Assembly: GCA_038062955.1 (NCBI GenBank) | Contig: JBBTWE010000001.1 | Span: 389,640-453,639, forward strand | Source: Patescibacteria group bacterium | GTDB taxonomy: Bacteria; Patescibacteriota; Minisyncoccia; Phycocordibacterales; BOKC01 | DNA length: 64,000 bases | Direction of reading: 5' to 3' | Shown here: one piece after another, positions 5,323 to 61,326 of the stretch | Layout: each line of letters starts with the position of its first letter | How positions within the stretch are numbered: the first letter of the stretch is position 1 | The notes under the pieces: model-generated | What the model saw: only the letters and a program-made list of their open reading frames with translations | What the model was told of the DNA's origin: nothing | Databases searched by the model: none | Program-made: the position numbers and the translations under genes

Positions 5323-5457
5323 CCCGTTGTGAAATTTCAGGTCGTTCTTCGCAAGCTCGGAACTATCCTGTTATTTTTTGGCTCATTCTTAATAAATAAA
5401 TTTAATTCTTTTATGCATTCCGTAGTAAGTATTTACAACCTGAAATTCTACTACGGG
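5323..5457. repeat. Hairpin repeat family 1 (CCCGTAGT-stem element), copy 1, directly abutting the rpoD ATG
   Basis: Terminal inverted repeats cccgttgtgaaatttcaggt / acctgaaattctactacggg around ~95 bp of AT-rich core; ~85% identical to 25849-26003. Confidence 0.7.
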
Positions 5458-7177: not shown

Positions 7178-7185
7178 AAATGTAA

Positions 7186-7307
7186 TTCAAAGGTCAAAAA
7201 TCAAAAGTCAAAATTTAAAGTTAAAAGTTATTAATTTAAAATAATTTTATTCTTTTTTACTTTTGAATTTTGAATTTCAATTTTGAGTTTTGCCTTTTGA
7301 ATTTTGA
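7186..7307. repeat. AT-rich long inverted repeat family 6 (aaaagtcaaaat / attttgactttt units), copy 1, in the dnaG-rpoC intergenic region
   Basis: Left arm 7186-7232 and right arm 7258-7307 are complementary; homologous to 27003-27116. Confidence 0.55.
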
Positions 7308-7337
7308 CTTGAGTATTATTTGTAATTCGTGTCGTGT

Positions 7338-14315: not shown

Positions 14316-14458
14316 GCAATTTAAATAGGTAAAAAGTTGGGTCTTTAAACCTTTTCGACAAAATTATTAAATTTTTTATTTTTCCCCGAACACTAAGATT
14401 TTAAAAAGAAAGAAGTGAGAGAACTTTCAGATTCGGATGCAGACCGAGGCACAAGCGA

Positions 14459-14524
14459 GTCGGAAATTTTATATCACTTCGTGATAAAAAATCTCCCGAC
14501 ATGATTTCTATGGTGTAGAAATCA
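14459..14524. repeat. Twin-hairpin repeat family 3, copy 1 (GTCGG...CCGAC and GATTTCT...AGAAATC), in the rpoB leader region
   Basis: 62 of 66 nt identical to 33899-33964, with compensatory stem changes between the copies. Confidence 0.6.
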
Positions 14525-14870: not shown

Positions 14871-17800
14871 TTACGGTTGGCTGATTATCTTATTTCTTGT
14901 TATAGGGCCGAAATATCCTACTGCTGGACTAAGACCATTTAAGCGTTGAAATTTTATCAGCGCCACTTGGGTAAGATTTCCAAAATAAGTCCCCTCATTA
15001 CCTGGTGAACCAATGCCTGAAGAAGCAATAACGAATCCATGAGTATTCAAGAAGACTTGCAATGCTCGAACATCTGGCCCAACCGAACCAACGGTAAGGT
15101 CTCGAGAGAAGGTAGAACTAATGACGGGTGTCTGCAATCCCTGATTTGCTCGTTGTTCTAGCAGAGCCAAGAGAGTGGCTCGCAAACTTGTGAGAAGGTT
15201 CTGAAGTTCAGCAATGGTCATCTGACTTGTTGGTCTGTTAGGTTGATTGTTTCCTTGATTGTTGTTAGAAGCTCCACCGCCAGATGAACCACCTCCGCCG
15301 CCTCCCCCTCCTCCACCACCACCGCCACCAGTATTTGTATTTTCAGTCCTTCCTTCATCTTCATTAGACCAAGCCGAAGCTCCGATAGTATTCACTGCTC
15401 GGACACGATATTCATATGTTGTGTTCACTGATAGACCGGTATCGGTAAATGTTTGTGTATTGATTGGCAGATTTGATGCAGAAGAAAGAGAAGTAAATGA
15501 GTCTGGAGATATTCTTCTTTCAACTTCAAATCTGGTTTCATTGTTGCTGTTGTCGTTCCATGATAGGCGAAGTTCGGATGGACCAAGTACTGTAACCAAG
15601 AGAGAAGATGGTGCAGATGGAGCTGTTAGTTGTTCAACAACCAAAGGTAGTCTGTTACTAAACTGTCCATCAGCGTTTCGTACTCTGAAATCATGAGTGC
15701 CGACAGATAGCGAACCAGCTAGGAATTCGAATCTGATAACAGAAGTGCTTAGGACACTGGAAGTCTGGTTAGAACAATTTTGACCAGAACATCTTTGAAG
15801 AGTGGCGCCTGGGAAATCAAAACCTGAACCATAGAAATCGATTTGTCTGTTTTGATTGGATGATACGGTCGAAGGAGAGATACTTGCGAGAACTGGGGTT
15901 TGGGCAACAACTGTTCCTGCGGTTCCGCTTCCAACAACAGATATCCCTGCTCCACTTGTTGTGCCTTGAGCAACAGAAGACCATGCTGAAGATCCGACTA
16001 CATTGTATGCTCGGACACGATAGCTGTAGCTTGTGTTTGGGGTTAGATTCGTGTGAGTGAATGTGGTGACGCCTGCCGCGACTGTTCCTGCCGGTAACCA
16101 AGTACTTGCTGAAGTTAGTCGGTATTCAATATTGAATCCTTGTTCATTAGAGCTTGTGTCAGACCAATTTAGACGAAGTTGGGTAGAGTTAAGTGCTGTT
16201 ACTCCCAGATTAGATGGAGTAGATGGAGCTCCGGATTGCACAGTGAGAGTGTATGGAGTTGTCCTGACCAAAGAACCTGCGGTTGCAGTCAGAGTGAGAG
16301 GATATACAGCGACAGGTGTGGTTGTTAGGGTGGTGATGGAGAGAGTAGAAGTACAAGTTGGATTTGGTGTGCAAGAAGTTGGAACAAAAGAGAACGAGCC
16401 TTGGGCAGAAGTAAGACCGTTTGCTTGAAAACTGACAACTTCAGAAGCACCGGCTGTCTTTGTGACAGTGAGAGTTGTTTGGGTAGATTGTCCTTGTTGA
16501 ATAGAGCCTGATATTGGGTTTGTGGTGAGGTTGAAGTTGAAAGCAGTAACAGTTGTGCCCTGGGCTACGTTAGACCACGCGGAAGATCCAGCTGTGCCCA
16601 CGGCTCTTACATGATATTCGTAAGAAGTTCCAGCAGAGAGTCCTATGTCGGTGTAAGTGGTTGTGTTAGGGGGTAAATTTGATGCCGCTCCAATAATTGC
16701 AAATGTTCCGCTAGGCAATAATCTTCTTTCTATTTCGAAACGGGTTTCGTTACCACTATTATCAGACCAATTCAGACGAAGTTGTGAAGTACTCAAAGAT
16801 GTAATTATTAGATTTGATGGAGGGATTGGAGTGCTTTGTAAGGTAGTGCCAGTCGCAATACTAGACCATGCAGAGGCCCCAGCAGTGTTGTAAGCTCGCA
16901 CACGGTAGTCGTAAGAAGTATTGGAGAGAAGACCAGGATGAGTGAAGGAAGTGATACCTGCAGCCAGGGTGCTAGCACCCGGAACAGTTAGCCAAACAGA
17001 AGCGGTGGATGGTTTGTATTCTAGTGTAAATCCTTGTTCGTTGGTACTACTGTCAAACCATGTAAGAAGTATGCTCGTACTTGTTTGGCCAACAGCCACT
17101 AAATTAGTTGGCGCGTTTGGCGATACTTGCGCAGTAGAACCAGAAGCAACTGGTGTCCACGCCGAACTGCCAACAGTATTATAAGAACGCACCCTATAAT
17201 CATAAGAAGAATTTGGCACAAGACTTGAATGAGTAAACGTATTAACGCTTGCCACTACTGTGCCTGCGGGGAGCCAGGTGCTTGCCGAAGATAATTTGTA
17301 CTCTATATTAAACCCTTGTTCGTTGGTGCTGTTGTCATTCCAAGTCAAACGTAACTCCGACGAACTCATTGTTGTAATTATTAGATTTGATGGCGGGTTG
17401 GGTATTGTTTGTGAAGTTGTACCAGAGACAGTGGAAGACCACGCTGAATTGCCAGCTGTATTATGAGCGCGTACTCTGTAATTATAAGTGGCATTTGCGG
17501 TCAAATTAGAATGTGTGAATGTGGTCACACCTGCCCCAACCGTACCCGCCGACAACCATGTGCCAGAAGAAGCTAATTTGTAATCTATATTGAATTCTTG
17601 TTCGTTGTTACTGTTATCGTTCCAATTTAGACGAAGTTCTGATGAACTCACTGTTGTTACCGTAAGACCAGATGGAGCACTTGGTGGGTTAGACGGAGTC
17701 CCTGCTTCAAAATAAAGTCCCCACATAGCATCAGCGAATTGACTACTATACCCGCCCCCATGACCCACCATGTGGAGATTTGGAAATCTACCTATACCAT

Positions 17801-19466
17801 TTGCGGGATTAGTATCTAGAACACAATTACCAGGACTGCCGCTAAGTGGTCCGTAAGTAACTCCGTACGCGGAATTTGAAGGGGCTCCTCCTGAAGTTGG
17901 ACTCGTAAGAGAACATGTACCATTTCCTGGACACGGAAAAGAGACAGTTCCTGAACCTGAACTATAAGTTGCAACCGCCGAACTGCATGCGGCTCCTGGA
18001 GTGCTTCCTCCAACACAGACTCCAGGCGCTGGAGCACAAACATCTGGTTGTGTTACTGCACCAGAAGGAACCCATCTTGCTAAGTAATCAATTGATAACT
18101 GGTTATTCCAAACATTAATTCCTCCGGGCAAAAGAATGGTCGCCAAAGTTCCACCTACGGCATCATTTGAGAATGTTTGCTGATAACCGTTAAGAGGATA
18201 AAGACCCCCATCAATATACCGATATGGATCAATACAAGTTTTTGACCCAGGATCAGTATTATGAAGAACCGTCCAATAAACTCCATCATTACAGTACTGT
18301 ATTTCTTGTGAAGCTACAGGAACACCTGTCCTGTTTAAGGTGGCAATACTGTTCTCTCCGAAAACAGCTAAACCGCTACCACTTACAAAATTTTTCATTG
18401 CTTGATTATTTAAAAGTATTCCCGCGAAAGCGATTGGCGCTTTTCTTCCATTTTCATGACCTCCTCCACCAGCAGTGCTGTAGTCTCCTCCATTTAAAAC
18501 GACACCGTAATAATCAATTCCTGCCTGAACATAGTTAATGATTGCATCCATCTTTAGGGACAAAGAGTCATTTAAAATAATACGCAAAGCTGCATTCCCA
18601 GTATTCAAAGCAATATCCCCTCCGTACGCCTGCATATTTTTATCAGGACGGATTCTGCCAAATTGCCATCCAGGGTAATCCAACTGAACTCTTCGAAAAT
18701 TGCTTTCGACGGTGGCAAGGGATGGAATAGTAACTCCGCTTGGTGGAGTCAAAGAAGGGAGCAACCCCACCTCAAGATTGAGAGTGCTATAAAGTGTTTT
18801 TTGAGTCCCAGCAAACCCTGGTCTGAATGAATTTGTTCCACTACTTGTGGGAATACTTGTGAGTACAGTAAGAACAGCGGCGGTATCAACATAGCAAGTT
18901 TGACCAGGATTATTTTCACAAACGGGAGATACGTCTGAATTAGAAATTGTTTTAATGATAGACGATGGTGTAGTGATAGTAATAGGAAGTGATGGAACTA
19001 GAGCAGCATTATAGGCATCACCACGAGAATCATAACCTTGTGATGTAAATTGTGCTGGATTAATTTGAAAGCCATTTCTTCCACCAGAAAAATTTGGTGT
19101 GATGCTGGTAATTGTGACCGGCGAAACAACCCACCAGTCCCCATTCACAAATTGTCCGCATTCCACAGATTGAGAAAAAGTCCAAGTAATTCCATATTGA
19201 GTGACAAAATCGCAAGTTGGAAGATCTGGACCATTTTCTTCTGGAACTGGTTGAGAAGGAAGTATTGGTATGTTTGTTGAAATGGGCGCACTTCCTTGAT
19301 TTCCATCTTCATCAACAACGAGGACACTTAAGAAAGACAGGCTTAAGTTTTTAAGGTCTATCTGTTTTACCCCAATGCCATTTATTAAAACAAATGAAAA
19401 TGTAAAAACGATAACAATCAAGAGAACTGTGATGCTAAATAATTTTTTCATCTTTTTTCCTGACAT
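14871..19466 (-). CDS. Giant secreted or cell-surface protein (1531 aa): N-terminal signal/TM, large beta-rich domain, about 8 fibronectin type III repeats, poly-Gly linker, C-terminal peptidoglycan-binding (PG_binding_1-like) domain
   Basis: Hydrophobic N-terminus LFSITVLLIVIVFTF; repeated ~90-aa units LRLNWSD.S.NE.GF.IE...Y.YRVRA.N..G.S.WS; GGGGGGGGGGGGGG linker; C-terminus FGPITR / LQ..LN..GF motif. Confidence 0.85.
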   Translation of the reverse strand: MSGKKMKKLFSITVLLIVIVFTFSFVLINGIGVKQIDLKNLSLSFLSVLVVDEDGNQGSAPISTNIPILPSQPVPEENGPDLPTCDFVTQYGITWTFSQSVECGQFVNGDWWVVSPVTITSITPNFSGGRNGFQINPAQFTSQGYDSRGDAYNAALVPSLPITITTPSSIIKTISNSDVSPVCENNPGQTCYVDTAAVLTVLTSIPTSSGTNSFRPGFAGTQKTLYSTLNLEVGLLPSLTPPSGVTIPSLATVESNFRRVQLDYPGWQFGRIRPDKNMQAYGGDIALNTGNAALRIILNDSLSLKMDAIINYVQAGIDYYGVVLNGGDYSTAGGGGHENGRKAPIAFAGILLNNQAMKNFVSGSGLAVFGENSIATLNRTGVPVASQEIQYCNDGVYWTVLHNTDPGSKTCIDPYRYIDGGLYPLNGYQQTFSNDAVGGTLATILLPGGINVWNNQLSIDYLARWVPSGAVTQPDVCAPAPGVCVGGSTPGAACSSAVATYSSGSGTVSFPCPGNGTCSLTSPTSGGAPSNSAYGVTYGPLSGSPGNCVLDTNPANGIGRFPNLHMVGHGGGYSSQFADAMWGLYFEAGTPSNPPSAPSGLTVTTVSSSELRLNWNDNSNNEQEFNIDYKLASSGTWLSAGTVGAGVTTFTHSNLTANATYNYRVRAHNTAGNSAWSSTVSGTTSQTIPNPPSNLIITTMSSSELRLTWNDNSTNEQGFNIEYKLSSASTWLPAGTVVASVNTFTHSSLVPNSSYDYRVRSYNTVGSSAWTPVASGSTAQVSPNAPTNLVAVGQTSTSILLTWFDSSTNEQGFTLEYKPSTASVWLTVPGASTLAAGITSFTHPGLLSNTSYDYRVRAYNTAGASAWSSIATGTTLQSTPIPPSNLIITSLSTSQLRLNWSDNSGNETRFEIERRLLPSGTFAIIGAASNLPPNTTTYTDIGLSAGTSYEYHVRAVGTAGSSAWSNVAQGTTVTAFNFNLTTNPISGSIQQGQSTQTTLTVTKTAGASEVVSFQANGLTSAQGSFSFVPTSCTPNPTCTSTLSITTLTTTPVAVYPLTLTATAGSLVRTTPYTLTVQSGAPSTPSNLGVTALNSTQLRLNWSDTSSNEQGFNIEYRLTSASTWLPAGTVAAGVTTFTHTNLTPNTSYSYRVRAYNVVGSSAWSSVAQGTTSGAGISVVGSGTAGTVVAQTPVLASISPSTVSSNQNRQIDFYGSGFDFPGATLQRCSGQNCSNQTSSVLSTSVIRFEFLAGSLSVGTHDFRVRNADGQFSNRLPLVVEQLTAPSAPSSLLVTVLGPSELRLSWNDNSNNETRFEVERRISPDSFTSLSSASNLPINTQTFTDTGLSVNTTYEYRVRAVNTIGASAWSNEDEGRTENTNTGGGGGGGGGGGGGGSSGGGASNNNQGNNQPNRPTSQMTIAELQNLLTSLRATLLALLEQRANQGLQTPVISSTFSRDLTVGSVGPDVRALQVFLNTHGFVIASSGIGSPGNEGTYFGNLTQVALIKFQRLNGLSPAVGYFGPITRNKIISQP

Positions 19467-19500: not shown

Positions 19501-22500
19501 TCACTGTCCTATCAATGCTCTCGTTTTTGGTCCAAAATATCCGAGCGCAGGAACAACACCTTTTGATCTTTGTAGTCTTGCTAAAGCCGCTCTCGTCAAA
19601 TCTCCAAAATAGGTACCTTCATTTCCTGGTGAACCGACACCGACAGATGTGATGACGAATCCGTGAGTATTCAAGTATATCTGCAAAGACCTGACATCAG
19701 GACCTTCCGAACCAACTGTGAGATCTCTGGTGAATGCCGCACTCACGATTGGAGATTGTCCTGCTTGGAGAAGAGCTCTCTGTTCAAGTAGAGCAAGAAG
19801 AGTTGCGCGTAAAGATGTCAGAAGATTCTGAAGTTCTGCTATAGTCATTTGGCTTCCAGGTCTTGAAGGGTTGTTTCCTTGATTGTTGTTGTTGTTTGAA
19901 GCTCCGCCGCCAGATGAACCTCCACCGCCACCACTAGAACTACCACCTCCTCCCCCTCCGCCACCGCCGGTTCCGCCTGAATTTCCTCCACCACTAACTT
20001 CCCCAGTCGTACCTTGCGCAGTAGGTGACCATGCAGAACTACCAATAGAGTTGTATGAGCGGACACGGTAATCATAAGCTGTGCTTGCCGATAAGCTTGA
20101 ATGAGTGAAACTGGTTGTGCCGGCTGAAAGCGCGCTTGCCCCTTGAACTCCCGACCATGAACTTGATGAAGATTGTTTATATTCTAATGTGAATCCTTGT
20201 TCATTAGTACTTGTGTCAACCCAATTTAATAGAAGACTTGTAGAAGATTGCGCAGTGGCAACCAAATTAGAAGGAGCGTTAGGTATCGCATTCAAAGTCG
20301 TTCCAGAAGCAAAAGTGAGAGGGTGCCAAGGAGAGGCTCCTCCGGTGTTCACTGCTCGTATTTGGTATTCGTAGTAAGTGTTGGGAGTTAGATTGATGTT
20401 TGTGAATGTACCTTGAGCTGAACTGCTACCAGGAACAGTAGCTACCAAAACCCAAGTCCAGTTGGTAAGTTGTTGTCTTCTCTGAACTTCGAAACTGACT
20501 TCGTTGTTACTGTTGTCGTTCCAATTTAGACGGAGTTGGGACGAACTTAGAGGAGTGATTGTGAGAGAGGATGGTGTGGAAGGGGCTTGAACTCCTCCGC
20601 CAATTATAACTCCTGTGGAAGGGGCTTGCGCCCAACTAGTGCCAGCTCCCCCCGTCGTGCCGGAAGCCAAGTTAGACCATGCTGAAGCTCCAATAGCATT
20701 AACCGCTCTTACACGATATTCATAAGAAGTACTTGCTGACAATCCACTATTAGCAAAGGTTTGGGTATTAGGTGCTAAGTTTGAAGCCGCTGGAATGATT
20801 GCAAATGTTCCGTTAGGCAACAATCTTCTTTCTATCTCGAAACGAGTTTCATTAGTACTTGTGTCAACCCAATTTAATAGAAGACTTGTAGAAGATTGTG
20901 CGGTGGCAACCAAATTAGAAGGAGCGTTAGGTATCGCATTCAAAGTCGTTCCAGAAGCAAAAGTGAGAGGGTGCCAAGGAGAGGCTCCTCCGGTGTTCAC
21001 TGCTCGTATTTGGTATTCGTAGTAAGTGTTGGGAGTTAGATTGATGTTTGTGAATGTACCTTGAGCTGAACTGCTACCAGGAACAGTAGCTACCAAAACC
21101 CAAGTCCAGTTGGTAAGTTGTTGTCTTCTCTGAACTTCGAAACTGACTTCGTTGTTACTGTTGTCGTTCCAATTTAGACGGAGTTGGGACGAACTTAGAG
21201 GAGTGATTGTGAGAGAGGATGGTGTGGAAGGGACAGGTGGCTGAACTGTGACTGGTCGTCTAACGCTAACTTGATTATCAAGATTCTTGACTCGAAATTC
21301 ATAAGTCCCGGGAGTAGCTCCTACTCCAAAATCAAGTCTTATGAGTTGAGAACTCATTTGTGTAAATCCGGGGACAGCTCCGCACACGGTAACACAAATC
21401 TCCAAAACTGCTCCGGGATTATCAAAATTATTACCATTGAAACTAAGGGTATTGTTCTGTGCGTTAGTAATCGTCGAAGGAGTAATGCTAACTAAGTTAG
21501 GCGCTGATGATGTGCTTCCACCTCGAGGTAGAAACGCCCATTGAGGATTCTCCTGTCGTTTCTGAATATAATTTGAATTTGGATTTGTGTTTGCAACATT
21601 AAAAATCCAATTCCAAGCCTGGTTTCCAAGGGGGACGTCAGTAAGATGGGAAACTGCTCCCATAATCATAGTGGAATAACCATGATTAGGGTCCCTAAAA
21701 CCATCTATAAAATAATCAAAAACTGTTGCTAAATGGGCTGGGAGAAATTGCTCCGTAATGCTTTCGTATGTATTGTAATAAGAATTATTCGCTACATTAA
21801 ATATTGGTGTCCGATATTCAGAAACAAGAGCCTTAATAGTATTATTGGAGTGATTAAGAAAGCCGGTAAGATATTCACCGAGATAATTCTTAAGCGGCCC
21901 GGAGGCGTATCCTAAATCTTCCAAGTGTCCGAGTGTATAAACCAAAAGCCCTTGTTGCCATGTCCCATCAACAGCATAACCTAAAGGATTTACGGCTGGA
22001 ATCGGATAATTTATCTCACCAACACCAATATGGTGTAATGAGGGGGGTGTAGTGATTCCTCCCATCCAGCGAAGGGAACCTAGGACGTTCCTTCCCCAAT
22101 TCCACATAGTACTATTTGTATAGGCTGTACCAGTAATTCTAAAGAGACCTTCTTTTGAAGCAATATATTCTTGAGTAAGCAAATCAAAGTGGCTCTTTTC
22201 TTCACTTCCTTGAGGAGAAAGAAAAGCTGTTCGCCCTCTTATCTGCATACAGCGCGCTTCTCCTCTTGTCTGGATTCCATTCAAATCTCCCTCTTTTCCT
22301 GTCGGGCCCCTGCTATAAGCTAAATTGCCATATGAGCTGGATAGAGAACCGTAAGATGACCAAAACCAAAGTTCTTCGAGATACCAATAGTCTCCTGAAA
22401 GCGCGTACTGTATTGAATAAGGATCTGGAATATGTGCACAATCAGGATTCCAAGAATTTGAAGCGTGAGGTCCAACAATATTAACCATGTCAGAAGGAAG

Positions 22501-23877
22501 ACTATAAGCATTTATAAATCTAAACCCTGGGCGCGCGTTAGGAGACAAAACCTTCCCAGTAGCATTAACCGTATTTGAACGGTCAAAAAATCTTCCGGTA
22601 GAACCCTCCCTTAAATGAACGGGCCAAGCGGCAGCCAAATCCGCCATTCCAGAATTCATTTTTGCAAAGCGAGAATCACCTGTAAAAAGCCAGTAAACAG
22701 TCCACTGCGGCCAAGGGCCGAGTTCAGGCCTACCTCCGGTAGACCCCATATCAAGCATGTAACTTCCAGAATCGTACAAATCTTTCGGTCTTGAAAGCCA
22801 AGCCGACGAATAATAATTAGTTAAAATATTTGATGGAATAACTATACTGGTGTCATAATTTGAAATAAATCCAGTCTCTTTGAGATATTCAAGATTATGA
22901 TCAATGGCGATCTCTCCCGGTTCCCCACCAATCCAGAATTCTTTAGTCCACCTAGTAGCAAGATAATGGTTCACATTATTTTTTGTGTAGACAGTCAGAG
23001 GATTAGAATTACCTAAAGTAAGGGAAAGGTTGTACTGCATATCTTGCAATACCTGGGAGTTTGCCACTTCACCAATATATCTAACCCGAACCTTGCCAGC
23101 CCTAGGAAAAAAAGTTGCGATAAATATAGGCCTGAAAGATTTATAAGTGTCGAAACCAATGTCATATCTTCTTGCGGTAGAATGATCCGCAAGAATTATT
23201 GAGGTAGACTCTGAACCTTTTAGCCAGTATTCAAATTCATTATCGGAGAGCATAGTGCGTGCAGAAGCAGACACAGTGCTTGGACCAGTAAGTCCTATTG
23301 TTGCTCCAAAGTTATATGGAGCGCCAAGCATATTATTCTGTGTTAAGAATGCTTGATTGTTTCCAGTCTGTTGGTTTTGAAATGTTGCAACAATTTGTTG
23401 ATTTGGATTTAATTGCGGAATATAAAACGACATTATTACATGCTTCGCGCTTCCGTCTCCCCATCTAGTTTTTACATCTGATTGAGTAATTACTGGAGTT
23501 CCGTTAAGTAAAACTTGCGGATAGTTGTTTATTTCCCCTTGAGCGAATATCCTTCCAGTCTGAACGGGATAATTTGTGGTACTTTGTCCAGCCTTTTCAG
23601 TAATTGTTATAAAATTGTTTGGATTATCGGTGCCAATTTCTCCACCTTCTTCTGGGGTTGGCGGCACTGGAGGTAAAGGCAACGGTAGGGGTTGCGGTTC
23701 TAAAGGTCCTTCTGCACCAGTCTGATCTCCAGTATCATCAACAGTAGAAATACCCAAAAAAGACACAGCTAAATTTTTGAGATTGATGTCACTTATTCCT
23801 GTTCCATTGATCAGAGCGAAAGAAAAAGTTATAACAATGATAATGAGGAGACCAATTATGAGGAGTGTTTTTTTCAT
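19501..23877 (-). CDS. Paralogous giant surface protein (1458 aa): signal/TM, Pro-rich segment, ~800-aa domain of unknown fold, FN3 repeats, Gly/Ser linker, C-terminal peptidoglycan-binding domain
   Basis: Same architecture; C-terminal ~120 aa nearly identical to the neighbour (SQMTIAELQNLLTSLRATLLALLEQRA...). Confidence 0.85.
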   Translation of the reverse strand: MKKTLLIIGLLIIIVITFSFALINGTGISDINLKNLAVSFLGISTVDDTGDQTGAEGPLEPQPLPLPLPPVPPTPEEGGEIGTDNPNNFITITEKAGQSTTNYPVQTGRIFAQGEINNYPQVLLNGTPVITQSDVKTRWGDGSAKHVIMSFYIPQLNPNQQIVATFQNQQTGNNQAFLTQNNMLGAPYNFGATIGLTGPSTVSASARTMLSDNEFEYWLKGSESTSIILADHSTARRYDIGFDTYKSFRPIFIATFFPRAGKVRVRYIGEVANSQVLQDMQYNLSLTLGNSNPLTVYTKNNVNHYLATRWTKEFWIGGEPGEIAIDHNLEYLKETGFISNYDTSIVIPSNILTNYYSSAWLSRPKDLYDSGSYMLDMGSTGGRPELGPWPQWTVYWLFTGDSRFAKMNSGMADLAAAWPVHLREGSTGRFFDRSNTVNATGKVLSPNARPGFRFINAYSLPSDMVNIVGPHASNSWNPDCAHIPDPYSIQYALSGDYWYLEELWFWSSYGSLSSSYGNLAYSRGPTGKEGDLNGIQTRGEARCMQIRGRTAFLSPQGSEEKSHFDLLTQEYIASKEGLFRITGTAYTNSTMWNWGRNVLGSLRWMGGITTPPSLHHIGVGEINYPIPAVNPLGYAVDGTWQQGLLVYTLGHLEDLGYASGPLKNYLGEYLTGFLNHSNNTIKALVSEYRTPIFNVANNSYYNTYESITEQFLPAHLATVFDYFIDGFRDPNHGYSTMIMGAVSHLTDVPLGNQAWNWIFNVANTNPNSNYIQKRQENPQWAFLPRGGSTSSAPNLVSITPSTITNAQNNTLSFNGNNFDNPGAVLEICVTVCGAVPGFTQMSSQLIRLDFGVGATPGTYEFRVKNLDNQVSVRRPVTVQPPVPSTPSSLTITPLSSSQLRLNWNDNSNNEVSFEVQRRQQLTNWTWVLVATVPGSSSAQGTFTNINLTPNTYYEYQIRAVNTGGASPWHPLTFASGTTLNAIPNAPSNLVATAQSSTSLLLNWVDTSTNETRFEIERRLLPNGTFAIIPAASNLAPNTQTFANSGLSASTSYEYRVRAVNAIGASAWSNLASGTTGGAGTSWAQAPSTGVIIGGGVQAPSTPSSLTITPLSSSQLRLNWNDNSNNEVSFEVQRRQQLTNWTWVLVATVPGSSSAQGTFTNINLTPNTYYEYQIRAVNTGGASPWHPLTFASGTTLNAIPNAPSNLVATAQSSTSLLLNWVDTSTNEQGFTLEYKQSSSSSWSGVQGASALSAGTTSFTHSSLSASTAYDYRVRSYNSIGSSAWSPTAQGTTGEVSGGGNSGGTGGGGGGGGGSSSGGGGGSSGGGASNNNNNQGNNPSRPGSQMTIAELQNLLTSLRATLLALLEQRALLQAGQSPIVSAAFTRDLTVGSEGPDVRSLQIYLNTHGFVITSVGVGSPGNEGTYFGDLTRAALARLQRSKGVVPALGYFGPKTRALIGQ
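20186..21235. repeat. Near-identical internal tandem duplication (about 400 bp repeated with a 650-bp period) inside the FN3 region of the second giant gene
   Basis: 20186-20585 and 20836-21235 are almost base-identical; the identical 75-aa antisense ORFs in the track are a symptom of this. Confidence 0.7.
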
Positions 23878-24978: not shown

Positions 24979-25848
24979 TTACTTTAAGTATACAACTGGA
25001 TTTGTTTTGCTTATCGCGGCTACTATTGCACCAATAAGCAACACTTGGGTGGAATAATACACCCAAAGCAGAACCGCGATGAAAGATCCGGAAGCGCCGT
25101 ACACAGCGTCATTGGTATAGAAAAGGTTGAAATATAGTATAAGAGCGGCATTGAGAAAACCAAAGAGTATAGTGCAAATGATTGCTCCTGTGAGTGAGCT
25201 TTTCCATGTCGTCTTCTTACTTCCTACAGTTTTGTACATAAGGGTCAAAAGCAAAATCGTTGAAACGAAAACTAGGAAAAAATTAAGCAATTGTGATTTT
25301 GCAAAAAATTCCAAGCCGAAAAAGTTCGCGGAAAAACTTAAAATTAAGGGCGCAATGACACTTATAAAAACAATCATTAAAATTAAAAAAACTAGATACA
25401 CACTAAAACCTAAAGATTTTAGATAATTCAGAAATGTTTTCTTTAAGTTTTCATCCAAGCCTAACTTCACTCCAAAAATCGCAAAAAAAGATCCTTTTAA
25501 AGTATTGAAAAAGTGCGACAAACCATAGAAGGTTATGAAAAAACCAATAAAAGAAAAAGTTAGGTGTGATTTTGACTGTTTTAGACTTTCAATTAAATCA
25601 TTAATAAAAGATGTGGATTGTTCACCAACTCTATTTTGAAAAAAAGTTAAAAGACGCGTTTCGGCTATGCTTTGATCAATTATTAAACCGCTAAGTGAGA
25701 CAAAAATAATAATGAGTGGCGCCATAGCAGAGATAGCGTAAAAAGCCAAAGCAGCAGCATGCTTTGGGATTTCCACTGATTTTATCTTCGGTATAATTTC
25801 TCCAAAAAAACTTAGTTTAGTTTTTCGGTGATGGAGGGTGACATTCAT
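24979..25848 (-). CDS. YihY/BrkB-family inner membrane protein
   Basis: AAALAFYAISAMAPLIIIFVS signature and about 6 TM helices. Confidence 0.8.
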   Translation of the reverse strand: MNVTLHHRKTKLSFFGEIIPKIKSVEIPKHAAALAFYAISAMAPLIIIFVSLSGLIIDQSIAETRLLTFFQNRVGEQSTSFINDLIESLKQSKSHLTFSFIGFFITFYGLSHFFNTLKGSFFAIFGVKLGLDENLKKTFLNYLKSLGFSVYLVFLILMIVFISVIAPLILSFSANFFGLEFFAKSQLLNFFLVFVSTILLLTLMYKTVGSKKTTWKSSLTGAIICTILFGFLNAALILYFNLFYTNDAVYGASGSFIAVLLWVYYSTQVLLIGAIVAAISKTNPVVYLK

Positions 25849-26003
25849 CCCGTAGTGAAATTTCAGGTCGTTCTTCGTAAGGCTGCGAACTATCCTGATA
25901 TTTTTTGGTAATTTTTAATAAATAAACTTAATTCTCTTATGTGTTCCGTGGTAAGTGTTTGCAACCTGAAATTCCCTGTCTGCCGACAGGCAGGTACTAC
26001 GGG
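25849..26003. repeat. Hairpin repeat family 1, copy 2, abutting the yihY ATG, carrying a nested copy of GC palindrome family 2 (25975-25994) in its distal arm
   Basis: cccgtagtgaaatttcaggt ... acctgaaattc[cctgtctgccgacaggcagg]tactacggg. Confidence 0.7.
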
Positions 26004-26012
26004 ATTCATATA

Positions 26013-26213
26013 TTATGTCTGTTTTTTATACAGTCGGAAAATATAGTAAGCTCCTGCAAGAAAAATTATGAGAAACAAAAGAACTCCTTTCCAAAAAAAC
26101 TCGTAGAAACGAGCCCCGATAAGAATTCCCAAAGAAAGCAAAGAGATTTGATAAATCCCCCACTGCCTTAAGGATAGTTTTAGATTACGAATCCTATTCA
26201 AAACCTCTAGCAT
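26013..26213 (-). CDS. Possible small two-TM membrane protein (about 66 aa)
   Basis: Hydrophobic ORF downstream of trmD; the longer track ORF overlaps trmD out of frame, so only the internal-Met version is plausible. Confidence 0.25.
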   Translation of the reverse strand: MLEVLNRIRNLKLSLRQWGIYQISLLSLGILIGARFYEFFWKGVLLFLIIFLAGAYYIFRLYKKQT

Positions 26214-26232
26214 GATTAAATTATACCACAGA

Positions 26233-26973
26233 CTAAATGCTCTTTTTCTTTTCCCTCCATTCTTTAATTTTCTTGTGATTTCCAGAAAGAAGGATTTTTG
26301 GGACTCGATAATTTTTACCTCCAAAAGTTACAACTTCAGGTCTCGTATAGTGAGGATACTCCAAATTTCCATTTTCCTCATTTTTTATCATCGAGCTTAA
26401 GAAAGATTCCTCTTCTAGAGATTCAAGTTTTATAACGCCAGGAATAAGTCTCGCGATACTCGAAATCATCACAGCCGCCGCAACTTCCCCATCAGTTAAA
26501 ACGTATGGACCAATTGAAACTTCTTCTGCACGAAGAGCGAGCCTCACTCTTTCATCGATTCCTTCGTAACGGCCGGTAATTAGAATTATATGTTTATAAT
26601 TTTTTGCGTATTTTAAAGAAGTTACTTGATCAAATTGCTTGCCTTTGGCCGACAAAATGAGAATTTTCAATTTACTTTTTCCAATCGCTTTCTTTATTGA
26701 TTCGACAACTTTCAAAATTGGTTCAGCCTTAAGAACCATACCAGCCCCACCACCGTATGGCTTATCATCCACTTGAGAAAGCGACCGAGGAGAAATCTTT
26801 CCCTCCTGCCTGCCTGCAGGCAGGTCCAGTTTCAACTTCCCGCCCTCCGTGAAATCCCGAGGATTGTAAAAGTTGATTTTAATTTGCTTGTCTCTCTGTG
26901 CTTTACCCAAAATAGACGTCTCAAAATATGAGCTCATGCTTTCGGGAAAAATTGTAATAATGTGAAACTGCAT
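26233..26973 (-). CDS. trmD: tRNA (guanine37-N1)-methyltransferase TrmD, with an ~18-aa insertion that encodes a GC palindrome
   Basis: DDKPYGGGAGMV, GRYEGIDERV, VLTDGEV motifs; extra segment EGGKLKLDLPAGRQEGKISPRSLSQ between DFT and VDDKPYGGG. Confidence 0.92.
   Translation of the reverse strand: MQFHIITIFPESMSSYFETSILGKAQRDKQIKINFYNPRDFTEGGKLKLDLPAGRQEGKISPRSLSQVDDKPYGGGAGMVLKAEPILKVVESIKKAIGKSKLKILILSAKGKQFDQVTSLKYAKNYKHIILITGRYEGIDERVRLALRAEEVSIGPYVLTDGEVAAAVMISSIARLIPGVIKLESLEEESFLSSMIKNEENGNLEYPHYTRPEVVTFGGKNYRVPKILLSGNHKKIKEWREKKKSI
26814..26833. repeat. GC palindrome family 2, copy inside the trmD coding sequence (cctgCCTGCCTGCAGGCAGG)
   Basis: 16-bp perfect palindrome read in frame as PAGRQEG. 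Confidence 0.6.
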
Positions 26974-27002
26974 ATAACTTAAAATTCAAAAGGCAAAAAT
27001 CA

Positions 27003-27116
27003 AAATTGAAAGTAAAAAGTCAAAATTAGCTTTATGTGCATTCACTTTTGAATTTTGAATTTAAATTTTGACCTTTGATTTTTGCCTTTTGACTTTATCA
27101 TAAAGGATAAAGCTCT
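27003..27116. repeat. AT-rich long inverted repeat family 6, copy 2, in the trmD / KH-protein spacer
   Basis: Arms 27003-27048 and 27064-27116; homologous to 7186-7307. Confidence 0.55.
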
Positions 27117-27179
27117 TCAAAAAAAACAAAACCTCCCAATTTCTCGAGAGGTCTTGTCTTTCTAACATATAGTGCCTAG

Positions 27180-27530
27180 TTATATTTTTAGATCATCCAC
27201 AGCTTGATCCAAACTTTTTGATTTAGGTTCTTTTTCTCGTCTGTCTCTCATTCCTACTGCCTCTCCTCTCTCTGGTCTAACACTTCCTTCTGGTTCGTTA
27301 ATTTTTAAATTAACTCGAGCATTGTTTTTCATCCCAACAACTCGCAAAAGTGTTCTGATAGCCTTTGCTGTATTGCCTTCGCGGCCGATGATCTTACCCA
27401 TATCCCCTGAATTAACATCAAGAGTGATTAGGACTCCCATTTCATCAACTACTCTCTTTATTTTTACATCGCTCGGATTATCAACAAGAGCCTTAACAAC
27501 ATACTCTAAAAATTCAACATCTCTTTCCAT
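27180..27530 (-). CDS. KH-domain RNA-binding protein (YlqC/KhpA-like)
   Basis: GKIIGREGNTAKAIRTLL KH motif; lies between rpsP and trmD as in many bacteria. Confidence 0.8.
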   Translation of the reverse strand: MERDVEFLEYVVKALVDNPSDVKIKRVVDEMGVLITLDVNSGDMGKIIGREGNTAKAIRTLLRVVGMKNNARVNLKINEPEGSVRPERGEAVGMRDRREKEPKSKSLDQAVDDLKI

Positions 27531-32828: not shown

Positions 32829-32867
32829 AAAAAGAAAGGGCGACCATGGTTTTAGCCTTGGTCGCCC
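32829..32867 (-). terminator. Rho-independent terminator of the island-B gene
   Basis: gggcgacca-N12-tggtcgccc hairpin followed on the minus strand by TTTCTTTTTG. Confidence 0.6.
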
Positions 32868-32899
32868 GTCTACAGGTGTCGACGCCTAACCCGTCGACC
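32865..32899. repeat. GC motif family 5 copy (reverse orientation) in the 3' UTR of the island-B gene
   Basis: Reverse complement GGTCGACGGGTTAGGCGTCGACACCTGTAGACGG differs at 1 position from 880-912. Confidence 0.55.
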
Positions 32900-33649: not shown

Positions 33650-33688
33650 CCCCGTAGTGAAATTTGCCCAGCAAATTCTACTACGGGG
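33650..33688. repeat. Hairpin repeat family 1, short form, immediately flanking the island-B -35 box
   Basis: ccccgtagtgaaatttg-cccagc-aaattctactacgggg. Confidence 0.55.
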
Positions 33689-33854: not shown

Positions 33855-33898
33855 TATCAAAAACTTATGATGAGAAAGAGGTTTGTAATTCACAACTA

Positions 33899-33964
33899 GT
33901 CAGAAATTTTATATCACTTCGTGATAAAAAATCTTCTGACATGATTTCTGTAGTGCAGAAATCA
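33899..33964. repeat. Twin-hairpin repeat family 3, copy 2, ending at the rnc stop codon
   Basis: GTCAG...CTGAC versus GTCGG...CCGAC in copy 1: a compensatory pair change. Confidence 0.6.
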
Positions 33965-34803: not shown

Positions 34804-35703
34804 CTATCCTTTGGTCGCCAAAATCTTTATCGCTTCGGTTACAACCGGCATAATATCATCATAGAAATTGAGGTCCAAAATATCTTTGAGTTTAAACCAT
34901 CTTGCATCATCCAACCCGCCAGACTCACCTAATTTTAATTCAACAAAAGGAGCTTCGGCTAGAAAATATTTTACAATTTTTCTGATCTTGCCCTTTTCTG
35001 GATCATAGGCAATGTACTGGTTCATACCAATCCCAGTTTGAGGCACAGCTTCAATTCCCAATTCTTTTTTGATGACTCTAGAAACACCCACATGTTCATC
35101 TTCACCGCTTTCTAATTTGCCTTTGGATAATGTCCAATGTCCAAACACATCGTGGACAAGCGGAAGAAAAATATCATTCTTTTCTTTGGCATAAACCAGC
35201 GCGCCAACAAGCATTTCAGTAGGCAAATTTTTATCCGATCCGTGATTTTTTGAATTTTTCTTGGGAGCCTCATTTTTCCCCGGTTCCCCCATTTCTTTAT
35301 AAACAGAGCCTAAAACTCCGTTTATAAACCGACTACTATTTTCTCCACCAAAAGCTTTAGCAAGTTCAATTGCTTCATTTATCGCAACTTTAGCCGGAAC
35401 TTCCTTTCTATCAGAAAATAGAAGTTCATAGAGACCAATTCTTAAAATATTGCGATCAATAATTGAAATTTTTTCCAAAGGCCAGTCTGGAGCGGCTTTC
35501 GTAATGATCGTGTCTAAGTCATTTCTTCGAGATAGAACATTCTCAAACAAAGACTTCATAAAATCCATATCTCCATGATTAGGAGCAAATTCTTTGGCAT
35601 TTCGAGAAAAAATATCTAGAGATTCTGACTCTGGAGACTTTTTAAAATCCCATTCAAAAAGAGATTGAAGAACTATGGATCTCGAAAGGTGTCTGTTAGA
35701 CAT
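34804..35703 (-). CDS. nusB: NusB antitermination factor fused to a C-terminal Nudix hydrolase domain
   Basis: NusB core VPAKVAINEAIELAKAFGGENSSRFINGVLG; Nudix box GKLESGEDEHVGVSRVIKKELGI (G-x5-E-x7-R-x3-EL-G). Confidence 0.85.
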   Translation of the reverse strand: MSNRHLSRSIVLQSLFEWDFKKSPESESLDIFSRNAKEFAPNHGDMDFMKSLFENVLSRRNDLDTIITKAAPDWPLEKISIIDRNILRIGLYELLFSDRKEVPAKVAINEAIELAKAFGGENSSRFINGVLGSVYKEMGEPGKNEAPKKNSKNHGSDKNLPTEMLVGALVYAKEKNDIFLPLVHDVFGHWTLSKGKLESGEDEHVGVSRVIKKELGIEAVPQTGIGMNQYIAYDPEKGKIRKIVKYFLAEAPFVELKLGESGGLDDARWFKLKDILDLNFYDDIMPVVTEAIKILATKG

Positions 35704-43184: not shown

Positions 43185-43328
43185 ATAAAAAGCTGGCTTT
43201 CGAGCCATTTTACGAAATTGATAGTTCTTTAAACAAAGTTGGTGCGGGATTTTAGAGTAGAAACAATTCTAAGCTGAAATCCCCCACCAACTCTATTTCA
43301 GAGAAGGTTTTTCGGGATAAGAGGAAAA

Positions 43329-45938: not shown

Positions 45939-47081
45939 TTATCTCATAGTGGCCTTAAATTGAGCCACAGTTTTTTCCTCTAATTTTTTATGGAGCTTAT
46001 CCACTTCTTCGTTAGTTAAAGTTCTTCCAAGAGAGCGGTAAATAACTCTGAAAGTATAACTTATTTTATCTTTGCCAAATTTTTTTTCGTCTTCGTAGGT
46101 GTCTATCGTCTGCACTTCTTCAACAAGATCTTCGGCGACATCACGAACAACTTCATAATAAGAATTTAGCTTGACTTCCTTGTCAATAATAAAAGAAATG
46201 TCTCTTACAATCGGCGGATATTTGCTTACTTCTTTGAACTTACTATCTATATTCTTAAACTGTTTCGTAATTCTCTCGTCGTTAGACCAAAGAATCCTGA
46301 TGTCTGGAATACCCATTTTTATCATAGCCAGCCTTTCCCCAAAACCAAAAGCTAGACCGTTGTATTTTTCTGGATCCAAATTAAAATTTTTAAGAACTTG
46401 TGGATGGACCAGTCCCGCACCATTTACTTCAAGCCATTTACCGTTAAATTTTATATCCATTTCAAGAGAAGGGTTCGTGAAAGGAAAAGTATCAACTAAA
46501 AATTTATACTCAATTTGAGAGCCCAATACGCTCTTGGCCATATCAATTTGGACTTCTTCAAGGTCTTTAAGGGTAAGAACTTTTTTTGATTTTTTACAAA
46601 TATATAGTCCATCAATCTGGTGAAAGGCTGGATAATGATTTCTATCAATCTCATCTTTTCTAAAAACAATACCGGTAGAAAGAGCGGCGATTTCTCCAGT
46701 ACTTTCCAATCTTTCCAAAACCTCCTTATCTGTGAGGTAAAATGACCACATAACTGTCATTTGGGTCCGGAGAAGATTATTTTGGTCAAGGTAATAAGTG
46801 TCCGTTTCACCGCGGCTTGGATGATTTTGAGGGGTATTTAACAAATCGAAGTTTTCTTTCACTGTAACCACACGTGGAAATTCAACCAAATCAAAATCTT
46901 TGAAACGCTGGAGGGCTAATATTTGATCGAATAAAATTTTTACTGGGGAATTTTTCTTTTTGGTCAAATCCGGCAGAGCCAGAAGATTTTGAATACGCAA
47001 ACTTTTGAAATCAGTCTGTTTTTTTATCTCTTCTATAAGATCTTTTTCTCTCTGGGTGTCAATGATGATATTTCTTCTCAT
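45939..47081 (-). CDS. pheS: Phenylalanyl-tRNA synthetase alpha subunit
   Basis: HPSRGETDTYYL, FRKDEIDRNHYPAFHQIDG, FGFGERLAMIK class II motifs. Confidence 0.93.
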   Translation of the reverse strand: MRRNIIIDTQREKDLIEEIKKQTDFKSLRIQNLLALPDLTKKKNSPVKILFDQILALQRFKDFDLVEFPRVVTVKENFDLLNTPQNHPSRGETDTYYLDQNNLLRTQMTVMWSFYLTDKEVLERLESTGEIAALSTGIVFRKDEIDRNHYPAFHQIDGLYICKKSKKVLTLKDLEEVQIDMAKSVLGSQIEYKFLVDTFPFTNPSLEMDIKFNGKWLEVNGAGLVHPQVLKNFNLDPEKYNGLAFGFGERLAMIKMGIPDIRILWSNDERITKQFKNIDSKFKEVSKYPPIVRDISFIIDKEVKLNSYYEVVRDVAEDLVEEVQTIDTYEDEKKFGKDKISYTFRVIYRSLGRTLTNEEVDKLHKKLEEKTVAQFKATMR

Positions 47082-51065: not shown

Positions 51066-51085
51066 CCTGCCTGCCGGCAGGCAGG
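51066..51085. repeat. GC palindrome family 2, CCTGCCTGCCGGCAGGCAGG, in the rpmE-prfA spacer
   Basis: Perfect 20-bp palindrome, identical to 54085-54104. Confidence 0.6.
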
Positions 51086-54084: not shown

Positions 54085-54104
54085 CCTGCCTGCCGGCAGG
54101 CAGG
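54085..54104. repeat. GC palindrome family 2, CCTGCCTGCCGGCAGGCAGG, in the rplY-downstream spacer
   Basis: Perfect 20-bp palindrome. Confidence 0.6.
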
Positions 54105-54891: not shown

Positions 54892-54925
54892 CGGGGTATT
54901 ATATTAAAAGTGGAGAAAAAGTAAA

Positions 54926-54973
54926 CCCCCACACCTTTAATTACAAATTTATTGTAATTAAAGGTGTGGGGGT
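54926..54973. repeat. Perfect 21-bp-stem palindrome upstream of rplY (cccccacacctttaattacaa-attt-attgtaattaaaggtgtggggg)
   Basis: Direct reading; may be an operator or a bidirectional terminator. Confidence 0.5.
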
Positions 54974-61233: not shown

Positions 61234-61326
61234 AATGTCTGCCTTTAAAAACATTGCGGAGAAGCTTGGCTTCGAGCATAGTAAAAATTTAGCAAAATTT
61301 TATACGCGTTTTTAAAGGCAGACATT
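61234..61326. repeat. Repeat family 4 copy between the two transketolase subunit genes, with a 19-bp perfect outer inverted repeat (aatgtctgcctttaaaaac / gtttttaaaggcagacatt)
   Basis: Core is homologous to 33793-33854. Confidence 0.5.

Follow-up and report, generated by a model that had tools for sequence, protein, structure and literature searches.

The closest described counterparts of the repeats analyzed here belong to several different systems. The Correia/NEMIS MITEs of Neisseria are non-coding sequences of about 100-155 bp, with inverted ends that fold into a long hairpin and with short duplications (of TA) at the target; they occur in many copies adjoining genes, are co-transcribed with them, and have no known autonomous partner. 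The Rickettsia palindromic elements and the GC clusters of yeast mitochondria are short palindromic inserts (45-150 bp) in AT-rich genomes, restricted to their lineages, which can land in genes and be read through in frame. The insertion sequences of the IS200/IS605 type, also very small (though at least 600-700 bp), possess hairpin-forming ends recognized as single strands, an HUH transposase and a fixed tetra- or pentanucleotide target, and they produce no target duplication. The GIY-YIG homing endonucleases, carried by introns or free-standing, such as I-TevI and the Seg proteins of T4 (of which SegB acts in the T4 tRNA gene region), share the catalytic domain PF01541 and behave selfishly. 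Finally, the REP/REPIN sequences, described in part in PMC2817692, are very short GC-rich hairpins with a conserved tetranucleotide (GTAG), without target duplication or coding capacity, often intergenic and terminator-like, each being specific to a species and its single RAYT (HUH) gene.

The window, by which we mean the whole 64-kb stretch of DNA analyzed, is a part of a core bacterial chromosome with about 39% GC, carrying dnaG-rpoD, rpoB/rpoC, trmD, rnc, nusB, dnaE, gyrB, ribosomal protein genes and prfA; the window ORFs that were scanned included no transposase. A first-pass annotation of this DNA had singled out the segment 25849-26003 as the second copy of a hairpin element into which a GC palindrome had been inserted. 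In our opinion, this segment probably consists of two stacked layers of selfish DNA, namely a MITE of a GIY-YIG element and a 20-nt module that entered it later. The hairpin family (family 1) is represented in the window by five copies, not two, and its CCCGTAGT terminus pattern occurs there in excess of chance. The copies, together with the target duplication of copy B, are as follows.

5323 to 5457, minus strand: hairpin copy A, 135 nt, B subfamily, without insert, in the dnaG/rpoD spacer
25844 to 25847, no strand assigned: left copy of the target duplication TTCA of copy B; the minus strand reads TGAA, within the brkB start ATGAAT
25849 to 26003, minus strand: hairpin copy B, 155 nt (135 nt without its insert), between a small ORF and a brkB-like gene
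26005 to 26008, no strand assigned: right copy of the target duplication TTCA of copy B, a direct repeat
33651 to 33687, plus strand: hairpin copy D, minimal, 37 nt, consisting of nothing but the two arms and a loop and flanked on either side by the duplication TCAA
34649 to 34785, plus strand: hairpin copy C, 137 nt, with an unrelated interior and in the opposite orientation, in the nusB-NUDIX/rnc spacer
63901 to 63965, plus strand: hairpin copy E, a 65-nt family member

Copies A, B and C fill spacers of co-directional genes, touching the ATG of rpoD, brkB and rnc, respectively, and copy C is flanked on both sides by the duplication TCCA. The neighbors of copy B, the sense of which was taken as the strand bearing the GIY-YIG ORF in its full-length relatives (see below), are a conserved small ORF (26013-26324) and the brkB-like gene (24979-25848), for whose protein an exact look-up returned no match. 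The stem of copy B is extended by a terminal pair, T25848/A26004. In every window copy one arm reads CCCGTAGT-GA-A and the other CCCGTAGT-AG-A, as a result of which stem positions 9-10 are always G.T plus AxC. A K-turn or loop-E reading of this asymmetry was dropped, since both strands give G.T and AxC pairs and there is no bulge. The window hairpins all fold far better than shuffled sequences, with z from -5.3 to -6.7 (-4 to -6.7 when all folding analyses are taken together). A search of the whole window against Rfam 15 at the gathering threshold detected only a tRNA, and in the region 25700-27200 at E <= 1 only chance-level matches were obtained, none of them on either element.

Outside the window, a two-arm pattern scan with one genome per species yielded more than 115 loci, which, among the matches listed and judging by record titles, belonged essentially all to MAGs of Patescibacteria/CPR (the groups named include Wolfe-, Buchanan-, Taylor-, Uhr-, Andersen-, Zambryski- and Nealsonbacteria, Paceibacterota and Saccharibacteria); in IMG/VR the hairpin family was almost absent, with one match. 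Altogether 127 copies, or 128 counting copy A, were extracted from the window and more than 100 other Patescibacteria (CPR) genomes. They are non-coding and 37-155 nt in size, five of them residing in the 64 kb and several per genome in other MAGs. All of them possess a complementary stem of 19-20 bp and meet in this respect the criterion of terminal inverted repeats, while their interiors cannot be aligned between subfamilies. Arm positions 1-9/11 were fixed by the search pattern, so that their invariance is partly imposed; right-arm positions 10-11, left free in the search, were still conserved at about 98-99%. Stem positions 12-19 are Watson-Crick paired in at least 89% of cases, with 3-4 pair types at each position and with a sequence varying by subfamily, and the pairing collapses at position 20. 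The hairpin stem is under selection for pairing.

The flanks of the hairpins are direct repeats in one register only: four positions match at about 80% each, an exact 4-nt repeat being present in 89 of 125 copies, and the bases just outside the CCCG...CGGG core (-1/+1) are complementary, not identical, in 94% of the copies. Since the outer bases are complementary and four further ones are repeated, the element ends in Y...R and is accompanied by a 4-nt target duplication; this reading superseded that of a 6-bp duplication. A Xer/dif-like or tyrosine-recombinase core, considered on account of the arm-6 nt-arm arrangement at tandem junctions, was rejected, as the repeat comprises 4 nt and varies, and the outer bases are complementary rather than identical. 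Tandem hairpin copies share one target. Five duplicated 4-mers (TTCA, TTGA, TCAA, CATA and TATG) dominate and go with the terminal base pair and the subfamily, sharing of the duplication type amounting to 36.9% within subfamilies versus 8.2% between them (odds ratio 6.5, p = 7e-31). Within a hairpin subfamily the type of duplication is inherited.

In the relative L273 (TrmD 89% identical) the site orthologous to that of copy B is empty and reads ...CATAATATATGAACGTCACTCTTCATC..., and the minus strand of the window reads ...CATAATATATGAAT(CCCGTAGTA...CACTACGGGATGAAT)GTCACCCTCCATC..., with the inserted part in parentheses. A more distant syntenic relative, L274/L275 (74%), also lacks copy B. Given that these sites are empty, copy B is a young insertion, upon which the brkB start codon was regenerated; it arrived after the split from the L273 lineage. 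The CCCGTAGT hairpin is a true mobile element. The suggestion of two independently mobile palindromic families was thus well founded as regards the hairpin, in view of its 4-nt target duplications and of the orthologous empty site in a close relative.

An ATG of an ORF of at least 80 codons lies within 0-2 nt of an end in 68 of the 128 copies (53%), versus 3.9% at random positions. The terminal T...A or C...G, together with the duplicated 4-mer, rebuilds a start codon or a -35 box, and more than half of the copies are therefore flush with an ATG. In size, lack of coding capacity, inverted ends forming a long hairpin, short duplications, multiplicity of copies and location next to genes the family resembles the Correia/NEMIS MITEs; unlike them, it has a 4-nt duplication inherited per subfamily, ends that rebuild start codons and a partner encoding a GIY-YIG nuclease rather than a DDE transposase.

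The proximity of 53% of the copies to a start codon, the 19-20-bp stem with its compensatory changes and conserved internal mismatch, the folding z-scores of -4 to -6.7 and the position of one copy in front of rnc would also be expected if the CCCGTAGT hairpin were primarily a cis-regulatory RNA, i.e., a 5' leader or an RNase III site, in which the palindrome is merely a tolerated extra stem. We consider this unlikely, as target duplications, the empty orthologous site, tandem stacking and the existence of ORF-bearing versions point to movement at the DNA level; besides, no Rfam match was obtained and the interiors are unrelated between subfamilies. A secondary RNA role of the hairpin after its insertion is not excluded.

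The ORF-bearing versions connect the hairpin, read as a mobile element, with a nuclease gene. Clustering of the ORFs located near P, the 20-nt palindrome considered below, revealed a small GIY-YIG protein as the only recurrent family, and the partner element was found by tblastn with a P-adjacent GIY-YIG ORF over all loci, followed by inspection of the flanks. The full-length relatives of the hairpin are about 320 bp long and consist of two inverted arms of about 20 bp (Y-CCCGTAGTAGAA... / ...TTTCACTACGGG-R) with a single ORF between them, which encodes a stand-alone GIY-YIG nuclease of 86-100 aa. The element of L018 (positions 5038-5354, 317 nt) reads CCCGTAGTAGAATTTTAATTCAATT-ATG...TTAAAATTTCACTACGGG, and that of L104 has the same layout, with the family termini and a GIY-YIG ORF. 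Six further members were fetched from distinct genomic contexts, and all six were bounded by the family termini; in total, 8/8 proteins of this family that were inspected are encoded between hairpin termini, and their ORFs keep a constant spacing from the GTAGAA arm. The 3' arm of the fetched elements is often flush against the ATG of the next gene. Sister hairpin families with GIY-YIG ORFs of their own occur in L170 (CCCGTTAGATG...) and in L017 and L090 (CCC(G/T)GTTAAAT...); the termini of such sister families were recorded as CCCGTTAGA... and CCC(G/T)GTTAAAT.... A search for autonomous copies in the form of distant CCCGT...ACGGG pairs produced only pairs of separate small elements, and the 3.4-kb inverted pair of L046 encloses housekeeping genes.

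For the L018 protein, 572 homologues were found at E <= 1e-8. The 120 of them that were listed are 85-105 aa long and all contain PF01541; wherever the organism is named, it belongs to a CPR lineage or is an unclassified bacterium. None of the catalytic residues (Tyr, Tyr-x-Gly, Arg, His and Glu; Y5, Y16, G18, R26, H30, E62) varies, and NCBIfam gave only a weak match to a group-I-intron endonuclease. An HMM of the protein run against six-frame translations of the MITEs revealed a truncated intermediate, a 152-nt copy in L019 in which the coding sequence for the N-terminal 34 residues is preserved (E = 1e-11), and no significant remnant of the ORF in window copies A, B and C; the candidate remnants in copies A and B (LTTEH...) were discarded, with a best E of 1.1. 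Sharing its ends with the GIY-YIG elements of about 320 bp, the hairpin is accordingly a MITE of a GIY-YIG mini-element, and the 135-nt hairpins are derived from it by internal deletion.

The partner proteins have the catalytic domain and the selfish behavior in common with the GIY-YIG homing endonucleases, and some of the GIY-YIG cassettes found here are tRNA-associated, as in homing systems. They differ in their small size (86-100 aa) and the lack of a DNA-binding extension. The criteria of a homing endonuclease are not met by the elements themselves, which are found at many unrelated, non-homologous loci and exhibit 20-bp inverted repeats, duplications and MITEs, i.e., the hallmarks of transposons. 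That the GIY-YIG nuclease is the mobilizing enzyme, or transposase, remains an inference, including its catalysis. To our knowledge, GIY-YIG enzymes are hydrolytic nucleases, known neither for strand transfer nor as transposases; moreover, tblastn disclosed no GIY-YIG gene in the 64-kb window, where the ORFs scanned were housekeeping genes only, and most MITE copies contain no ORF remnant. The ORF might then be a cargo or an invader, as homing endonuclease genes often are, and the hairpins would be moved by an unseen enzyme. Such a possibility appears improbable to us, considering the termini in 8/8 members and the constant spacing of the ORF from the GTAGAA arm, the sister hairpin families with GIY-YIG paralogues of their own, and the absence of any other gene between such termini in 2.1 Mb of loci. 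We therefore continue to regard the nuclease as the inferred mobilizing enzyme.

As for the second layer, copy B had been described as co-linear with copy A, and the pairwise alignment bore this out: the two copies are about 85% identical, and the sole long gap comprises exactly 20 nt, CCTGTCTGCCGACAGGCAGG, at 25975-25994. The 20-mer splits an arm of copy B (...GAAATTC / 20-mer / TACTACGGG, i.e., TTC/.../TAC), and its boundaries are unambiguous because no shift of the gap fits copy A. A target-site duplication around it was looked for and none was found. Allowing up to 3 mismatches, the 20-mer matches four sites in the window (25975, 26805, 51066 and 54085), versus none in 100 shuffles; the copies at 51066 and 54085, two mismatches away from the insert (V), are both the perfect palindrome P, CCTGCCTGCCGGCAGGCAGG.

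25975 to 25994, plus strand: nested insert V, CCTGTC-TGCC-GACAGG + CAGG, i.e., a 6-bp stem, a 4-nt loop and a 4-nt tail
26805 to 26824, no strand assigned: P-family copy in the trmD frame, reading CCTGCCTGCAGGCAGGCAGG on the minus strand and encoding LPAGRQ; a one-base variant of P
51066 to 51085, no strand assigned: exact P in the rpmE-prfA spacer, a site that is unoccupied in a 90% relative; on the minus strand it resembles a terminator
54085 to 54104, no strand assigned: exact P, downstream of the L25 gene; terminator-like, as a T-run follows it on the minus strand

V separates positions 9 and 10 of the copy B arm and, as folding indicates, forms a side hairpin exactly at the conserved mismatch. 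At positions 5 and 12 P and V are distinguished by a C-G to T-A change, where another variant has A-T, and a third one, met in three contexts, has C-G instead of T-A at positions 3 and 14. The paired changes at 5/12 and at 3/14 compensate for each other in keeping a 6-bp hairpin, CCTGNC-TGCC-GNCAGG with a CAGG tail, and one variant fits the full 20-nt palindrome register instead. These compensatory changes do not agree with an interpretation of P as the footprint of an excision or as a pair of abutted 10-bp terminal repeats. Exact P was encountered in other CPR loci as well as in 35 stretches from IMG/VR and at least 120 from metagenomes, and exact V in 23 further IMG/VR stretches; V thus constitutes a subfamily that recurs, rather than a decayed form of P. 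The exact P copies have 165 different flanking contexts, some of them coding frames or tRNA fragments, and the contigs concerned range from 29 to 71% GC; in these 165 contexts neither a target duplication, nor flank complementarity, nor a flank or target motif or consensus could be found. These occurrences establish P/V as a family in its own right, with members in hundreds of bacterial and viral contigs that are unrelated to one another. Targeting of hairpin loops by P, suggested by anecdotal cases (L132, L179, L288 and L290), was rejected in the absence of enrichment (20.1% vs 17.0%, p = 0.32).

Three comparisons of filled and empty sites are available for P/V (trmD, the rpmE-prfA spacer and paralogous tRNA copies), besides the MITE arm itself, filled in copy B and uninterrupted in other copies. 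In trmD the insert, encoding (D/T)(L/M)PAGRQ in the loop between PRDFT and VDDKPYGGG, is present in the window and in L273 and absent from L271, L272 and L274; the net gain of 18 nt (+6 aa) represents 20 nt with a compensating loss of 2 nt. In the rpmE-prfA spacer, the window sequence minus P matches that of L302 (RF1 90% identical) at 21/24 ungapped positions, the junction being GCC/TAG. Among the paralogous tRNAs, the upstream partial copy carries one or two P units and the intact downstream tRNA none, and in several fragments removal of P restores the canonical sequence of the tRNA D-arm. The L25-SLT spacer is too diverged for the P at 54085 to be scored as filled or empty. Judging from these pairs, it can be stated as demonstrated that P/V is inserted precisely and without target duplication. 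The proposed independent mobility of the 20-mer family is substantiated by the same pairs, and its independence of the hairpin by its presence in contigs that lack CCCGTAGT hairpins.

Part of the P sites are associated with GIY-YIG genes or with related hairpins. Within 130 nt upstream of GIY-YIG genes, 12 P-like sites were counted at 10 genes, versus 1.95 expected (the mean of random placement in the same loci; the maximum in 2000 trials was 9). Six or seven loci share one layout, in which a duplicated 5' part of a tRNA with P in its D-arm is followed by the GIY-YIG ORF and then by the intact tRNA. P/V also occurs in the arms of CCCGT-type hairpins, namely in both copies of L046 (CCCGTTA/P/GAAATAG) and in L200 (P/GCCTCTAACGGG), and in L232 P lies in the interior of a CCCGT-type element. 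This suggests, without proving it, that P/V tends to enter where GIY-YIG nucleases bind or cut. Since only about 5% of the P sites adjoin a GIY-YIG gene, the link with the nuclease may be indirect.

The copies at 51066 and 54085 fit the pattern of an intrinsic terminator, a hairpin with a T-run on the coding strand, and it might be supposed that the GC palindromes are immobile terminators or protein-binding sites which arose independently or were spread by selection. The insert of copy B and the trmD copy, however, have no T-run, the same 20 letters recur in 165 unrelated contexts over the 29-71% range of contig GC, the filled and empty pairs are precise, and convergence would not yield an exact asymmetric variant in 23 viral stretches, so that immobility of the palindromes seems to us hardly tenable. 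P/V, taken as a mobile family, resembles the REP/REPIN sequences as a very short GC-rich hairpin with a conserved tetranucleotide, non-coding, devoid of target duplication, often intergenic and terminator-like. Its tetranucleotide is CCTG/CAGG, so the REP-type criterion of a 5' GTAG is not met; no RAYT (Y1 HUH) gene was seen among the ORFs scanned, which were those of the window only; and, unlike REPs, the 20-nt P/V copies are identical to the letter across contigs of widely different GC content and viral contigs. With the Rickettsia palindromic elements and the GC clusters P shares the reading in frame, as in trmD, and differs from them in its 20-nt length and cross-lineage occurrence. The lack of target duplication is common to P/V and IS200/IS605, but P/V has no fixed target; the CCCGTAGT elements, for their part, make duplications, unlike IS200/IS605.

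Concerning the polarity of the event in copy B, the first-pass annotation had noted that an outgroup copy was needed to distinguish an insertion in copy B from a deletion in copy A. Such copies are now at hand: the unbroken arm TCTACTACGGG is present in 125/128 family copies, of the remaining three two have a variant arm, and the insert is found in copy B only; all eight full-length GIY-YIG elements also lack the 20-mer in the arm. The reverse event, i.e., loss of 20 nt from copy A and an ancestral arm containing the palindrome, which a two-copy alignment alone cannot rule out for want of polarity, is practically dismissed by the uninterrupted arm in the four other window copies, in 125/128 copies overall and in 8/8 full-length elements, and by the finding of the 20-mer elsewhere as an exact free-standing unit. 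That the 20-mer is an artefact of sequencing or assembly (e.g., an adaptor dimer), which might be suspected of a perfect palindrome that has a central CC/GG like a blunt join and turns up in many unrelated assemblies, is no real prospect either, given that its removal restores tRNA D-arms, the MITE arm and spacers (hence the flanks are not chimeric), that the trmD copy keeps the reading frame and shows different divergence in each of two independent assemblies with proteins 89% identical, and that variants with compensatory changes exist. The statement that the palindrome moved after the hairpin was in place holds in that V was inserted into a pre-existing arm sequence; whether it entered at this locus or into a progenitor copy just before the transposition of the latter cannot be distinguished.

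The nested insertion of V into hairpin B can be placed in a sequence of events. The ancestral spacer between the small ORF and brkB had a TAA-N3-ATG coupling; P entered trmD after the L271 split and before the split of the window and L273; hairpin B was inserted at A/TGAA/T after the latter split; and V entered the ORF-proximal arm of B, or else that of its immediate progenitor, which cannot be excluded with 64 kb. As to the mechanism, the 88-aa nuclease may recognize the conserved 11-bp base of the arms, possibly as an extruded hairpin, which is conceivable because arm positions 12-19 are kept complementary by compensatory changes. It would cut both the element and the target with a 4-nt stagger (I-TevI, a characterized GIY-YIG enzyme, leaves 2-nt rather than 4-nt overhangs), and the 4-mer would travel with the element and be joined by sticky ends or microhomology; a 4-nt sequence carried along in this way would explain why the duplication type is inherited within subfamilies. 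Subsequently V was inserted, precisely and without duplication, at the conserved mismatch in the ORF-proximal arm of B. P/V might be moved or copied in trans as a folded single strand, or patched into breaks made by the nuclease, and such breaks would be its most likely entry points, as P/V is enriched upstream of small GIY-YIG genes and recurs in CCCGT-type arms. The enzymology of both families is inferred and not shown, and no enzyme has been identified for P/V.

A broader proposal can be put forward only tentatively. The CCCGTAGT hairpins may be MITEs of an unrecognized class of insertion sequences, which at about 320 bp would comprise the smallest autonomous transposon known; its sole protein would be an 88-aa stand-alone GIY-YIG nuclease, not a DDE, HUH, serine, tyrosine or Cas1 enzyme, and the element would carry its own 4-nt target and rebuild the start codon. 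P/V would then be a separate hyper-parasite, cross-lineage and viral, entering at nuclease breaks in element arms, tRNA D-arms and elsewhere. That one small repeat should be inserted into another is nothing out of the ordinary; it is both partners that appear unusual, and a CPR-wide MITE family derived from a GIY-YIG-only element of about 320 bp and a cross-genome 20-nt module appear to be undescribed. No literature description of either element was found, which is weak evidence of novelty, as most subscription journals were outside the coverage.

If the 88-aa protein does move the hairpins, it would represent a sixth catalytic class of prokaryotic transposases and the smallest autonomous mobile element. 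P/V, at 20 nt, is shorter than any described mobile element, and its copying route could reveal a new type of templated insertion. Genomes of CPR/Patescibacteria, about 1 Mb in size, are usually called streamlined, and the 64 kb of core sequence studied here, including rpoBC, dnaG-rpoD and ribosomal protein genes, hold at least 9 copies of two unrelated selfish palindromes, one family being wedged at the start codons of essential genes and one copy of the other lying inside the trmD frame. Both elements break gene calls, producing false extended ORFs and split tRNAs, and can mislead the annotation of terminators, promoters and repeats in metagenome-assembled genomes.

Nesting was also observed within the 20-nt family itself, where P is located in the loop of a V-like copy (L240/L262). 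As a separate observation, the identity of P copies in contigs of 29-71% GC argues against lineage restriction.

In the metagenome contig L208 (at approximately position 12286), a P-type ATPase gene contains the 20-nt GC-rich palindrome P in frame, read as LPAGRQ, as it is in trmD. The conserved Gly before the VAxVGDGxND motif of this ATPase coincides in position with the Gly encoded by the palindrome. The reading frame and the position of this Gly thus hint, as far as can be judged from sequence, that those P insertions which survive in coding sequence may have been filtered for the LPAGRQ reading frame.

Of the P contexts listed, roughly one fifth, as judged by eye, lie inside genome-specific short-repeat arrays on other metagenome contigs (examples being L161, L118, L158 and L244), akin to the AT-rich hairpins of the window, which are given here together with its other dispersed repeats and hairpins:
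7184-7310 and 26976-27096, long AT-rich hairpins filling the spacer upstream of dnaG and that upstream of trmD
880-913 and 32866-32899, inverted pair of a 34-nt GC-rich segment, GGTCGACGGGTTGGGCGTCGACACCTGTAGACGG
14458-14524 and 33898-33964, 67-nt direct repeat, 91% identity
14712-14836, 61234-61326, 54925-54973 and 43237-43292, further intergenic hairpins

The arms of the AT-rich hairpins, of ~46 nt and 83-87% complementarity, are made up of degenerate TCAAAA(T/G)-like heptamers. The two inverted copies of GGTCGACGGGTTGGGCGTCGACACCTGTAGACGG are 97% identical and 32 kb apart, the copy at 880-913 being located within a 152-nt hairpin (861-1012), the arms of which look like decayed ACTACGG/CCGTAG termini; no Rfam match at the gathering threshold was obtained for the segment or for this hairpin. 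The 67-nt repeat is another dispersed intergenic repeat with small palindromes of its own. The further intergenic hairpins (spacers of 17-93 nt, at least 15 of 16 matches in the arms) bear no sequence relation to the main mobile hairpin family, CCCGTAGT, or to P and its variant V.

A second hairpin family, with the ends CCCGTTAGAGA...TCTCTAACGGG, was observed in other genomes:
L001, 3802-3920 and 5897-6017
L046, 1769-1837 and 4980-5051
Its targets are the same as those of the CCCGTAGT family, start codons being likewise abutted, and hairpins of the two families also form tandem stacks with one ATGAAT common to both.

Small GIY-YIG genes were found inserted just upstream of tRNA genes on other contigs (L267, L209, L159, L165, L214, L188 and L282), each of these ORFs being preceded by a duplicated 5' part of the tRNA. 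A tRNA on the phage contig L282 contains three P/V units, of which the D-loop holds one and the other two precede the T-loop. In L001 the D-loop of such a duplicated part is replaced by a different GC hairpin, TCCGCCAGCTGGCGGAGG.

The window also encodes the following proteins:
14871-19466 (1531 aa) and 19501-23877 (1458 aa), two adjacent giant ORFs
45939-47081, PheRS-like protein of 380 aa, class II core and C-terminal FDX-ACB domain in a single chain
34804-35703, fusion of NusB and NUDIX hydrolase domains in one 299-aa ORF

Both giant ORFs comprise fibronectin-III/Ig-like repeats, end with a peptidoglycan-binding domain and have internal repeats of 600-650 nt in common, one pair of which is 99% identical. 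In its layout, the PheRS-like protein resembles the monomeric enzyme of mitochondria, not the alpha2-beta2 type found in bacteria. Directly downstream of the NusB-NUDIX ORF lie copy C of the CCCGTAGT hairpin and rnc.
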